Shown piece after piece: positions 2,869 to 50,399 of a DNA stretch of 64,000 bases. Where the stretch lies: IMG/VR virus record IMGVR_UViG_3300027749_000039, positions 32,001 through 96,000 of that record, one strand, 5' to 3'. The notes below the pieces were generated by a model, which worked only from the letters and a program-made list of their open reading frames with translations, was not told where the DNA came from and made no database searches. This DNA is from a virus. Each line of letters opens with the position of its first letter. Within the stretch, counting starts at the first letter, position 1. Both the position numbers and the translations under genes were made by a program.

Positions 2869-3228
2869 ATGTATAAAAAGATTAATGATTTTATAGGAGA
2901 TAAATTTTCATTTGCTTTATCAACTATGGAAATGTTTTGGATAGTACTAATACTAGTTCTATTTCCATTATTATTTCAAAAACCAGACACATTAATTGCG
3001 TGGATTCAGTATCTTAGCACCGCAGTTTTGCAAGCAGTAGCTTTACCCTTATTAGGTTATACTACTAAAAAAAGTGGTGAAACTCAAGAGAAGATAATCA
3101 AAGATACACATGAAATATTGATGAAAGAAATTAAAGAAACTAAACATATACATAAAGAGATTATGATAATGATGGAAGAAATTAAAGAAATTCATGAACA
3201 TTACCACGAAGAATTAAAAAAGAAATAA
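2869..3228 (+). CDS. Small membrane protein (DUF1003-like)
   Basis: Two hydrophobic segments, LQAVALPLL motif, coiled-coil C-terminus. Confidence 0.5.
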   Translation: MYKKINDFIGDKFSFALSTMEMFWIVLILVLFPLLFQKPDTLIAWIQYLSTAVLQAVALPLLGYTTKKSGETQEKIIKDTHEILMKEIKETKHIHKEIMIMMEEIKEIHEHYHEELKKK

Positions 3229-22411: not shown

Positions 22412-22484
22412 GAGGGTATAGCTCAGTTGGAAGAGCATCTGACTCTAAATCAGAGAGTCGTGGGTTCGAGCCCCACTATCCTCT
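22412..22484 (+). tRNA. Amber suppressor tRNA, anticodon CUA (no encoded CCA)
   Basis: Cloverleaf: GAGGGTA/TATCCTC, GCTC/GAGC, TCTGA-CTCTAAA-TCAGA, GTGGG-TTCGAGC-CCCAC; anticodon at 22445-22447. Confidence 0.92.
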
Positions 22485-22491
22485 CTTAAAT

Positions 22492-22573
22492 GCGGTCTGA
22501 GTTTTAAATCTATCCTGGCGGAAGAGCATGGCACTAAACTATGTAACATTGGGTTCGAATCCTACAGATCGCG
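22492..22573 (+). tRNA. Non-canonical tRNA-like gene with CUA anticodon
   Basis: Acceptor GCGGTCT/AGATCGC, CATGG-CACTAAA-CTATG, T-loop TTCGAAT; D region about 10 nt too long, A at position 33, one T-stem mismatch. Confidence 0.7.
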
Positions 22574-23273: not shown

Positions 23274-23306
23274 AAAATAAATATATAAAAATAAAAACAA
23301 TTACTT

Positions 23307-23672
23307 ATGTTGTAGAACAAATTTAACGAAACAAAATTAGTGATAATATCTAGACAAGATATGTCATCAGGCTACCAAGTGGTCCAATCAGCACATGCTA
23401 TTGCGGATTTCGCAAGCGAACATCCCGAAACTTTTGAACAATGGAAAAAAGAATCTAATTCCATTATTTGCCTCTCAATCAAAGATGAGGAAACTTTATT
23501 AAAACTTCACGAAAAATTATCAAAGAAAACAGCAAGTTCATCATTTTATGAACCTGATGTTAATGCTTTTACGGCAATTTGTGTCTATGGCACACCTGAA
23601 ATCCGTAAAAGTCTTTCGCATTTGCCATTAGTTTTAAATAAAAAATCAAAAGATGGCGAAACGTGGTCGTGA
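23307..23672 (+). CDS. PTH2-fold (peptidyl-tRNA hydrolase 2/PTRHD1-like) protein with in-frame TAG at codon 3
   Basis: ATG TTG TAG AAC...AAA TTA GTG in frame; KLVIISRQD...VQSAHA...IICLS...FYEPD...TAI pattern. Confidence 0.75.
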
Positions 23673-23690
23673 TAAGTTAATATATACTTT

Positions 23691-24485
23691 ATGTATATAC
23701 GAAATTGTCCATCTTGTGGAAAAGAATTGACCTACACTACTAATTATAGTAAAAATAGGCAAGAAAAACTAAATAAATCTTGTAGAAGCTGTACTACCAA
23801 AAAGGAATATGTTATAAATCCGGATAAAAATAAAGGAGAAGAAAATGGTAGATTTGGAAAATCATTATTAGAAGTAATGAACAACAAATATGGTGAAAAA
23901 AAAGCAGAAATTAATTATAATAATTGGAAAAATAACAAAAATTCTTTTGGGATTAAAGAAAAAAATCCACAATATGGTATTTCCCCATTTAAGAATAATG
24001 GAATGTCATATAAGGGATGGTATAAAGGAATGTTTTTTAGAAGTAGTTTTGAATTGATGTTTATATTTGAAAATTATGATAAAAAAATAATTTCCGCAGA
24101 AACAAAAGAATATAGAGTTAGTTATAATTATTTAGGTAATGAAACACATTATTATCCGGATTTTTATAGCGAAACAAATAATACCATTTACGAAATAAAA
24201 TCTAAAAAATGGTTATTAGATAGTAAAAATCTTCTAAAAATAGAAGCAGGTAAGGAAGAATTTAAAAAAAGAGGAATTAAATATGAGGTATTATGTGAAT
24301 ATGATATGGATATATTTAAAAAATATAATTCTGATTGGCAGAAAATTATTTATGATTTTCTTTATGAATTAGTCATTTATAATGAAGTTAATTTAACAGA
24401 CTTGTCTTTTAAAAAATTAAAATTAAAATTGTTAAAAACAAAAAGGATTACAAAACTAAAAACAATAGAAAATACTATGAAGTAG
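23691..24485 (+). CDS. Free-standing homing endonuclease (TnsA-like PD-(D/E)xK, NUMOD3-like N-terminus)
   Basis: FRSSFE, YYPDF, YEIK motifs; own TAATATATA promoter; its stop is the TAG at codon 3 of the next gene. Confidence 0.7.
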   Translation: MYIRNCPSCGKELTYTTNYSKNRQEKLNKSCRSCTTKKEYVINPDKNKGEENGRFGKSLLEVMNNKYGEKKAEINYNNWKNNKNSFGIKEKNPQYGISPFKNNGMSYKGWYKGMFFRSSFELMFIFENYDKKIISAETKEYRVSYNYLGNETHYYPDFYSETNNTIYEIKSKKWLLDSKNLLKIEAGKEEFKKRGIKYEVLCEYDMDIFKKYNSDWQKIIYDFLYELVIYNEVNLTDLSFKKLKLKLLKTKRITKLKTIENTMK

Positions 24486-25055
24486 ATAACATTATCAGCA
24501 TTAAGAGAAGCGATGGAAAGTTGCGAACAAACAAAGGGGGTCTCTACCTTACAACATGGTCTATCCGTTAAAAATTATTTATTTGATTTACTAACTCATT
24601 TAAGAAATGAAACGCCATTAAAATATGAATGGTCATTACCAAAATGGGTAATTGAGAACAAAGAATTTTTATTAGATAATTTATCTGATGATAAAACGCT
24701 ATCATTATATACCGAGTATCATGATTGTGGAAAATGGTCATGTCTTGAAGTTGATGATGACGGCAAAAGACACTTTCCAAATCATGCTGAGAAATCCTAT
24801 GATATTTTTAAACAAACATTTAAAAACCAAATAGCAGCTATATTAGTTAAACATGATATGGATATACATACTTTAAAAGCAGATGGTGTTGAAAACTTCT
24901 GTAAAAATCCATTAGCAATAACATTGTTATTAACTGGACTTGCAGAGATACACTCAAATGCTAGTATATTTGGTGGTATTGATAGCACAAGTTTTAAGAT
25001 TAAATTAAAAAGTATAACACAAAGAGGAAAACAAATTTTAAATATTCTAAAATGA
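24477..25055 (+). CDS. HD-domain phosphohydrolase with in-frame TAG at codon 3
   Basis: ATG AAG TAG ATA ACA TTA... in frame with MESCEQT; LQHG, YHDCGK, HAEKS, HDMD motifs. Confidence 0.75.
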
Positions 25056-25354
25056 TAGAAGTAATACAAGATACTACATCAAAATATGGACCATGGTTAG
25101 CCGAATTTGGAACTTATGAATTAGTAGACGACGGTATACTAACCGCAGATGAATCACAAATACTAGATGATTCTTCTGGTGAATATGAAGTATTGAAATG
25201 TAAATTGAAAAACATTGATTTCACAAAACTTCAATATGGTAGCAAATTTTTGAAAGTCAAAAGAAGTAATGGTAATATTGAAACTTGGTCATATGGTGGT
25301 CAAAGTAGAATTATTCCAGAAGAAAATTTTAGTTTTTTTACAAGACCGATATGA
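25052..25354 (+). CDS. Hypothetical protein
   Basis: 100-aa ORF, ATGA overlap. Confidence 0.6.
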   Translation: MIEVIQDTTSKYGPWLAEFGTYELVDDGILTADESQILDDSSGEYEVLKCKLKNIDFTKLQYGSKFLKVKRSNGNIETWSYGGQSRIIPEENFSFFTRPI

Positions 25355-26391
25355 ATATAAAAGAAACATTTTTAAAACTAACTAGTAGAACTTATCCATA
25401 TGGTAATGAGCATCGTTTACGATCCTCATTGCCTAAAGATACTAAACGTGATAAACACGGTAATTTCTACTATAAAATAGGTTCATCAAGAACTATTTTT
25501 GCCTGTCATCTAGACACTGTTTCAAAAAAATATGAAGAAGTTGCTCATGTTTTTGACGGCAACATCATTAGAACAGACGGTAAAACAATACTAGGTGCTG
25601 ATGATAAAGCTGGTATGTGTGTGTTATTATATATGATTGACCAAAAAGTTCCTGGAACATATTTCTTCTTTGTGGGAGAAGAAGTTGGTTGTATTGGCAG
25701 TAAAGCAGCAGCATCAAAAGATAAGGATTTCTTTTTTGAATATGATAAGATAATATCTTTTGATAGGAAAGATACTTGTTCTATTATAACCCACCAAAGT
25801 TGGGAAAGATGCTGTTCAAATGATTTTGCAAAAGCTTTATCAAAAGAATATACCGATTTAGGTTTAGAACTAATACCTGATGATACAGGTGTTGGAACTG
25901 ATTCCGCCCAATTTACCGATATAATTCCTGAATGTACAAATATATCAGTAGGATATTATAAGGAGCATACACATGAAGAGCATCAAGATATAGATTTCTT
26001 GGAAAGACTTTGTATGGCTTCCGCTATTATTGACTGGGAAAGTTTACCGACTGCAAGAGATCCAAAAATAAAAGAATACAAAGAATATGATTATGATAAT
26101 CATTATTCAAAATGGATTAATAAGGAGCGTGAACGTGAAAAAGTATGTAAATGGAATTATGCCGATAATAGAAGAAAAGATAGAGTTGATTTAAGAAAAA
26201 CATACGGCTATAATGAAGATTTACCTATTGATGAAGAACTAAGAAGTAGATTGAATGATGCATCTTTATATGGAACTACGGATAGAAAAGATATATTTTT
26301 CGTATTCAGAGAATCTATGTTAGATAGAGGATTTTCAGCAGCAGAATATGGTATAATCGAGGAACAATATATTGATAACTATTTAGTTTAA
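25351..26391 (+). CDS. M20/M28-family zinc peptidase
   Basis: CHLDTV, LGADDKAG, EEVGCIGS, SFDR, EH motifs. Confidence 0.85.
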   Translation: MNIKETFLKLTSRTYPYGNEHRLRSSLPKDTKRDKHGNFYYKIGSSRTIFACHLDTVSKKYEEVAHVFDGNIIRTDGKTILGADDKAGMCVLLYMIDQKVPGTYFFFVGEEVGCIGSKAAASKDKDFFFEYDKIISFDRKDTCSIITHQSWERCCSNDFAKALSKEYTDLGLELIPDDTGVGTDSAQFTDIIPECTNISVGYYKEHTHEEHQDIDFLERLCMASAIIDWESLPTARDPKIKEYKEYDYDNHYSKWINKEREREKVCKWNYADNRRKDRVDLRKTYGYNEDLPIDEELRSRLNDASLYGTTDRKDIFFVFRESMLDRGFSAAEYGIIEEQYIDNYLV

Positions 26392-49991: not shown

Positions 49992-50399
49992 TTATAGTAA
50001 TTTTAGATTAGCTGTAATAGCATCAATTTTTTCAGAATAATGTGGTCCAATAGCAAGACAAGTTTTAGTTGGCACATTATTAAATTCAGTTCTGCCTGAA
50101 TCAACTATCATATGAACGGTCAAATCCGCTTCTTTTGCTTTATTATAGATTTCGTCTAATTCTTCTTCTGAATTGACACCAACACAGATTTTGGTAAAAG
50201 AATTTTGCATCCATTCTTTTGCTTCTTTAAGATTGCTCATACTTGTGTTAATAAATGCTTCGTTATATAGGCAATCTAACGAATCAAAAGTTCCCTTTTT
50301 TGTTAAGAATGCCATAGATGCGTGACTCGCCTGAGCCATTTCTTTTCCCCGCCTCATTTTGAGGTCTTTCCTCATTACTATTACTTGTTTAGTTGCCAT
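49992..50399 (-). CDS. pth2: Peptidyl-tRNA hydrolase, Pth2 type
   Basis: KQVIVMRKDLKMRRGKEMAQASHA, KICV, DSGRTEF...TCLAIGP. Confidence 0.92.
   Translation of the reverse strand: MATKQVIVMRKDLKMRRGKEMAQASHASMAFLTKKGTFDSLDCLYNEAFINTSMSNLKEAKEWMQNSFTKICVGVNSEEELDEIYNKAKEADLTVHMIVDSGRTEFNNVPTKTCLAIGPHYSEKIDAITANLKLL

Follow-up and report, generated by a model that had tools for sequence, protein, structure and literature searches.

In Streptomyces, the bldA tRNA-Leu(UAA) controls a handful of genes with the otherwise near-absent TTA codon. In phages that include the Lak and crAss-like groups, recoding of a stop codon has been described as a switch for timing (Borges et al., bioRxiv 10.1101/2021.08.26.457843). 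Suppressor tRNAs are also common in large phages with the standard code. For one of these, the jumbo phage XacN1, the targets of the CUA suppressor tRNAs were not found in a search made past terminal stop codons alone (PMC5852040). PTH2 proteins have been described previously in jumbo phages (PMC7824862). This report concerns a 64,000-nucleotide stretch of viral DNA (the window; bases 32001-96000 of the 190.6 kb contig IMGVR_UViG_3300027749_000039, CheckV completeness 31%) in which a gene for a PTH2-like protein (23307-23672, + strand) has an in-frame amber codon (TAG) as its third codon. We consider, with moderate confidence, that this UAG is a gene-specific translational gate that depends on a suppressor tRNA and controls a pair of proteins, the PTH2-like protein and an HD-domain partner, that may act at the tRNA 3' end. 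The gated pair is a concrete candidate target for such suppressor tRNAs. The window has a G+C content of 27%, and the records closest to the contig are 'uncultured phage' genomes of 630-735 kb (LR745206 and LR756501-4).

The proposed gate resembles the system of the recoded Lak and crAss-like phages in that a phage suppressor tRNA would be required for genes with an in-frame TAG; in those phages, this requirement is proposed to hold back expression while the tRNA is not yet active. The two differ in extent. In the recoded phages, the late modules are affected across the genome and TAG has ceased to terminate genes, whereas the megaphage described here uses the standard code and ends genes with TAG. 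Its gate is a single TAG at codon 2-5 (codon 9 in a few cases), in two partner genes beside a tRNA gene. The likeness to bldA is that a dedicated tRNA would control the translation of a few genes. However, the codon read by bldA is a rare sense codon in genes of the cell itself, while the phage gate is viral, uses a stop codon and has a conserved start-proximal position. No published description of a start-proximal, gene-specific amber gate was found.

From position 23307, the sequence reads ATG TTG TAG AAC AAA TTT AAC GAA ACA AAA TTA GTG, and the frame is open to a TGA (23670-23672) followed by a TAA. The gate (23307-23315, + strand) consists of the start codon, one sense codon and the TAG (23313-23315). 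The first-pass annotation had described an amber at codon 3 of a 121-residue readthrough ORF (open reading frame) starting at ATG 23307, and these coordinates were verified in the sequence. An alternative start codon, GTG, is located at 23340 (residue 12). It was rejected as the true start: in the ortholog alignments the codons between TAG and GTG are conserved at the protein level, and in most orthologs this interval contains no start codon. In an AlphaFold model, strand 1 spans residues 10-16 (K-L-V-I-I-S-R), and a start at the GTG would cut off its first two residues, in agreement with the earlier suggestion that the extension restores the strand K-L-V-I-I. A pseudogene or sequencing error was likewise rejected because the gate is conserved across orthologs. 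A promoter-like element, TATATAAA (23282-23289, + strand), is located 18 nt upstream of the ATG. As for the late-type motif placed upstream of the gene in the first-pass annotation, TATATAA is over-represented within 60 nt upstream of the ATG of orthologs (14 of 35 distinct sequences, 0.9 expected), but TATATAAA is not enriched across the window (42 found, 32.8 expected).

Orthologs were taken from 36 viral-contig loci, from six GenBank records of huge phages and from the cultured Tenacibaculum phage pT24; they gave 35 distinct sequences with pairwise identities of 29-96% (median 57%). All 35, including that of pT24, begin with ATG, zero to seven sense codons (mostly one or two) and TAG. Neither CAA nor CAG occurs as the gate codon in any of them, despite saturation of synonymous sites across the 35 sequences; the TAG itself is under selection. 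By comparison, the codons for the invariant Q27 are CAA in 27 sequences and CAG in eight, and those for Q24 are CAA in 23 and CAG in nine. Within the genome, a gate TAG kept against synonymous change is confined to the PTH2-like gene and its HD partner. The codon after the TAG is ATT in 27 of the 35 orthologs and GTA, ATA or AAC in the other eight. In most orthologs the next ATG, GTG or TTG is at codon 25-125 or is absent, and the upstream ATG is therefore the only possible start; in two loci, L009 and L028, the TAG is followed by GTA, and the next 60-125 codons contain no start. The segment between the TAG and strand 1, x-K-F-x-E-T-K-L, is conserved as protein with synonymous variation present. 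Beyond the gate codon, an in-gene TAG was found in one ortholog alone, that of the 735 kb phage LR756501 (L046). This single additional TAG is located within the domain at E-F-P-#-I-Y-E-Q-W, and the lineage may make more extensive use of TAG.

Two tRNA genes with the anticodon CUA are encoded upstream of the PTH2-like gene. The first (22412-22485, + strand) is a canonical cloverleaf amber suppressor predicted by ARAGORN. No other ARAGORN tRNA is near the gene; the 190 kb record has 45 more, all at 129-173 kb. The second (22492-22573, + strand) is oddly built, with an 8-bp acceptor stem, an unusual D region and the anticodon loop CA-CUA-AA. ARAGORN did not detect a tRNA in this interval; the element belongs to a family that has 11 high-scoring members upstream of orthologous genes. 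A covariance model made from ten of these odd elements has compensatory changes in 17 of 22 pairs. Odd-type members are located upstream of the gene in L006, L008, L011-14, L024, L027, L030 and L034, and a canonical tRNA(CUA) is near the gene in L010, L017, L025, L028, L029, L045, L046 and pT24. A tRNA(CUA) of either type is found within 3 kb of the gene in 19 of 35 lineages, and each of the five larger genomes inspected encodes at least one. In L046 (LR756501), two tandem tRNA(CUA) genes are located 2 kb downstream.

The HD-domain partner gene (24477-25055, + strand) starts with ATG AAG TAG ATA, again with an amber at codon 3, and encodes 192 residues. Its true start is ATG 24477, upstream of the ORF call at 24513-25055. 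The protein matches the C-terminal part of phrog_14850 (E-value: 1.9e-59), a family of fused PTH2-like and HD proteins. In seven viral loci and in pT24, the PTH2-like ORF continues in frame into an HD homolog. Among loci with split genes, the same ATG...TAG gate is present on the HD gene in 13 of 14 distinct cases; the fused forms have no gate at the junction. The HD partner keeps the H...HD...H...D motifs of a metal-dependent HD hydrolase, and its AlphaFold model (predicted local distance difference test [pLDDT] score: 97) has a helical N-terminal extension. The sole clear solved relatives are 3wfo-3wfs (sequence E-value: 0.008), matched with a Foldseek probability of 1.0 and a template modelling (TM) score of ~0.6, and as the top match in VIA-align (Z 12.9). 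One of them, 3wfr, is the structure of a class II CCA-adding enzyme from a bacterium (bioRxiv 10.1101/2021.08.20.456953). The HD region of this enzyme and the HD partner have the motif H-D-x-G-K-P ... F-x-x-H in common. However, the similarity is weak (19% identity), and the HD partner lacks the nucleotidyltransferase head, being either a stand-alone protein of 192 residues or fused to the PTH2-like domain.

The PTH2 fold of the 121-residue protein, proposed in the first-pass annotation, is supported by Pfam, AlphaFold and Foldseek alike. The conserved domain PF01981 (PTH2) is matched at profile positions 2-78 when the N-terminal extension is included (E-value: 7.4e-9) and at positions 12-78 from the GTG (E-value: 5.7e-8), so that the match begins ten profile positions earlier with the extension. 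Scores are 33.4-36.3 bits (35.8 bits in a genome-wide search) against a gathering cut-off of 23 bits. The AlphaFold model, built on 73 homologs, has a pLDDT of 92.2, and its first 12 Foldseek matches are Pth2 chains (TM 0.62-0.75; top matches 2zv3, 1wn2, 3erj, 1q7s and 1xty). The phage also encodes a canonical Pth2 (49992-50399, - strand; PF01981 113.6 bits) that keeps the G-K lysine and the sequence D-S-G-R-T-E-F. In S. solfataricus Pth2, we take the lysine of G-K to be K18 and the Asp of D-x-G-x-T to be D86. Comparison of the PTH2-like and canonical families by hhalign (98.6% probability) aligns Y23, E82 and T89 with the invariant Lys of G-K, the invariant Asp and the invariant Thr, respectively, with the canonical G-x-T-E-F loop removed by a six-residue deletion. 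Y23 is opposite the Lys in the HMMER and hhalign alignments alike. E82 is opposite the Asp in hhalign and MAFFT and off by one residue in one HMMER alignment. The active site is thus divergent, as the first-pass annotation had claimed, with G-Y for G-K and an invariant E-P-D in place of D-x-G-x-T-E-F, and the protein is distinct from the canonical Pth2 of the same phage. It falls below the cut-offs of the NCBIfam Pth2 equivalogs NF003314 and TIGR00283 (32.1 versus 126 bits and 27.5 versus 82 bits).

The PTH2-like protein shares its fold (TM ~0.7) with archaeal and eukaryotic Pth2, together with a conserved Thr in the last strand and, where helix 1 starts, the motifs R-x-D, G, Q and H-A. It differs in having Tyr or a variable residue for the catalytic Lys and probably the Glu of E-P-D for Asp, in a new invariant W46 and near-invariant N51, and in its frequent fusion to an HD domain. 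Seven residues are invariant in 73 sequences down to 31% identity (Q27, H30, W46, E82, P83, D84 and T89), and R16 and D18 are nearly so. Five of the seven are polar, and four are common to or aligned with canonical Pth2. Because the family keeps these seven residues, five of them polar, the PTH2-like protein may be a changed rather than a dead enzyme. About 1,060 proteins carry the signature K-L-x-x-(V/I)-T-R-x-D-L-x-P-G-Y-Q-x-x-Q-x-x-H-A ... W ... S-N ... F-x-E-P-D ... T ... L-P-L-A-L. An Atlas search with the 110-residue form returned 'peptidyl-tRNA hydrolase family' clusters that are mostly viral (about 75-100%).

We propose the following mechanism for the gate. Translation would begin at ATG 23307, and the ribosome would have to decode the UAG at codon 3 for the product to be made. 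The decoders would be the two tRNA(CUA) of the phage, encoded 0.7-0.9 kb upstream on the same strand. How much of the PTH2-like protein and the HD partner is made would then depend on, and scale roughly with, amber-suppressor activity. In E. coli, suppression at UAG is subject to competition from release factor 1 (RF1) and to an effect of a 3' purine. A start-proximal UAG followed by a purine may favour the suppressor over RF1, and a weak suppressor could open both genes with little readthrough at normal TAG terminators. With less confidence, the PTH2-like protein and HD partner would form a tRNA 3'-end enzyme with two activities at the CCA end, cleavage of an ester by one part and of a phosphoester by the other. 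Its role might be to remove by-products that arise from suppression or when the host attacks tRNA ends; alternatively, it could act as feedback by setting how far the suppressor itself is charged. A more far-reaching version, which is doubtful, is a self-contained amber circuit in standard-code jumbo and mega phages. In such a circuit, dedicated tRNA(CUA) genes (one or two, some rewired) would activate exactly two UAG-gated enzymes (gated at codon 2-5), and these would act back on tRNA 3' ends and so close a feedback loop on the level of amber suppression.

Other explanations of the in-frame TAG have to be weighed against a suppressor-dependent gate. Like Lak and crAss-like phages, the phage could use code 15, an ordinary genome-wide reassignment of TAG, and the gate TAG would then be a Gln codon in a late alternatively coded gene. 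This is a huge phage of the Bacteroidota type with suppressor tRNAs, public-database gene callers render the gate codon as Q, and TAG recoding is documented in Lak phages (bioRxiv 10.1101/2021.08.26.457843). However, the 179 long ORFs of the genome contain 31 in-frame TAG and 1,445 CAA or CAG codons, so that TAG makes up ~2% of would-be Gln codons, and most of the 31 are true ORF ends (including one tandem TAG TAG) or lie in 5' over-extensions. The PTH2-like gene is alone among these ORFs in having a TAG within its first ten codons. Dozens of ORFs terminate at TAG in the complete 430 kb relative G003, sheath-like ORFs of 1270-1328 residues in relatives contain no in-frame stops, and a Gln codon would not explain why CAA and CAG are absent from the gate in all 35 lineages. 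The genome does not show the features of a TAG-recoded phage, and genome-wide code 15 was rejected on the ground that TAG is rare in ORFs and used as a terminator; the codon counts point to a phage that is otherwise standard-code. Reassignment is thus very improbable. Another explanation is that ATG-NNN-TAG is a leader mini-ORF of two to four codons, a minigene or start-stop element, translated without suppression, with the protein made by reinitiation at ATT/ATA or at GTG 23340 and regulated by stalling or peptidyl-tRNA drop-off. Drop-off driven by a minigene and linked to Pth is known from lambda bar. ATT, a near-cognate start, follows the TAG in 27 of the 35 orthologs, where translation could conceivably resume after a mini-ORF; the TAG of cluster C mycobacteriophages sits in the 7-nt spacer between the Shine-Dalgarno sequence and a GTG; and no tRNA(CUA) was found within 3 kb of the gene in 16 of 35 lineages. 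Against this, the TAG is followed by GTA, AAC or ATA in eight orthologs, several of which lack a start codon over 10-125 codons. The window has AAC after its TAG, but conservation at the protein level extends over the eight codons that precede GTG 23340. A mini-ORF would also leave unexplained the synteny and genome-level co-occurrence with tRNA(CUA), and we regard it as improbable.

Even if the gate is accepted, the PTH2-like protein could be a catalytically inactive tRNA- or RNA-binding factor similar to human PTRHD1, to whose subfamily the first-pass annotation had likened it. Human PTRHD1 also has a PTH2 domain, lacks the G-K lysine and contains an E-x-P-E-like segment. H53 of PTRHD1 is named as a ligand site (PMC13023423) and would match H30 of the phage protein. 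Replacement of the invariant catalytic Lys by Y23, at a position that is variable across the wider PTH2-like family, is what such a factor would be expected to show, as are the lost loop and the low equivalog score (32 versus 126 bits). The seven invariant and two nearly invariant residues (R16 and D18) argue for activity, as do the hhalign placement of E82 on the catalytic Asp and the presence of Q27, H30 and T89 in canonical Pth2, and fusion to an HD hydrolase with intact motifs suggests a two-step enzyme. An inactive factor is the less likely outcome. Besides the ATT codons and the 16 lineages mentioned above, several points weigh against the suppressor-dependent gate and its proposed function. 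Distant family members have no gate (Lak phages, LR745208 and L083-L086); a search for related loci with P0173 returned four distant relatives, all ungated, and one with P0182 found no loci. The RF1-competition and 3'-purine arguments are general knowledge from E. coli. Suppression at the gate is deduced from sequence patterns, and the Q at the gate in translations is a placeholder rather than an assignment of the inserted residue. Finally, the catalytic Lys of Pth2 is missing, which makes hydrolase activity uncertain.

If the amber circuit is correct, it would explain the orphan suppressor tRNAs of phages without an alternative code. Readthrough of a stop codon would act as a gene-specific switch rather than as a genome-wide change of code, and such a gate may be an intermediate toward full recoding. 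The PTH2-like and HD pair would represent an enzyme family, so far uncharacterised and found mostly in viruses, with a link to tRNA ends. There is also a practical consequence, as gene callers truncate or mistranslate gated genes, and database clusters mix forms of 104 and 117 residues. In pT24, the full ORF of BPT24_235 (L040:2938-3891) starts with ATG AAA TAG ATA at 2938, while the GenBank coding sequence begins at an internal ATG (locus position 3073) and loses ~45 residues of the PTH2-like domain. The cluster C mycobacteriophage homologs of IkeLoa (L042:2462-2470), Grungle (L050) and Myrna (gp84; L041:2459-2470) read ATG/GTG TAG GTG and have a tRNA(cta) 250-300 nt downstream. The TAG in these phages separates the Shine-Dalgarno sequence (GGAGG/GAAGG) from the annotated GTG, and whether it is the same gate is ambiguous.

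Ungated PTH2 genes of the E-P-D type are also found within 0.6 kb of a suppressor tRNA, in L048 (Lak-B7), L049 (Lak-A1), L047 (LR745208) and L084. The anticodon is UUA in Lak-A1, Lak-B7 and LR745208 and CUA in L084, where the tRNA is 25 nt downstream. The linkage between protein and tRNA is therefore wider than the gate. Further tRNA-like elements occur at L008:2074-2144 and 2386-2469, at L018:1990-2119, 2265-2351 and 2473-2538, and at L027:1994-2097. They have the acceptor AGUCAGG and the T arm ACAGGUUCGAAUCCUGU, with an anticodon region that is disrupted or contains an insertion; they score 27-43 bits against the Rfam tRNA model, and ARAGORN is silent on them.

Further in-frame TAGs of interest lie in the same genome outside the window. 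The ORF at 148367-148678 (+ strand) has an early-TAG start, ATG ATG AAG TAG AAG, and TAGs at codons 12, 16, 19 and 43. Another early-TAG start, ATG AGA TAG ATA, is at 134768 (+ strand). A 1,736-codon ORF at 185257-190467 (- strand) has a single TAG at codon 789. The terminase profile PF17289 had no match in five genomes.

An endonuclease-like ORF (23691-24485, + strand; 264 residues) is located between the PTH2-like and HD genes. It is similar to phrog_15427 (endonuclease; E-value: 1.5e-10) and has a weak TnsA-like N-terminal match. Its stop codon, TAG 24483-24485, is codon 3 of the HD gene, that is, the gate. ORFs resembling mobile endonucleases are also present upstream of the PTH2-like gene at L024:1924-2997 and L038:2011-2985, where they stop exactly on its gate TAG. 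Just downstream of the HD gene is a gene for an M20/M28-type peptidase (25351-26391; phrog_4191, E-value: 4.7e-69).
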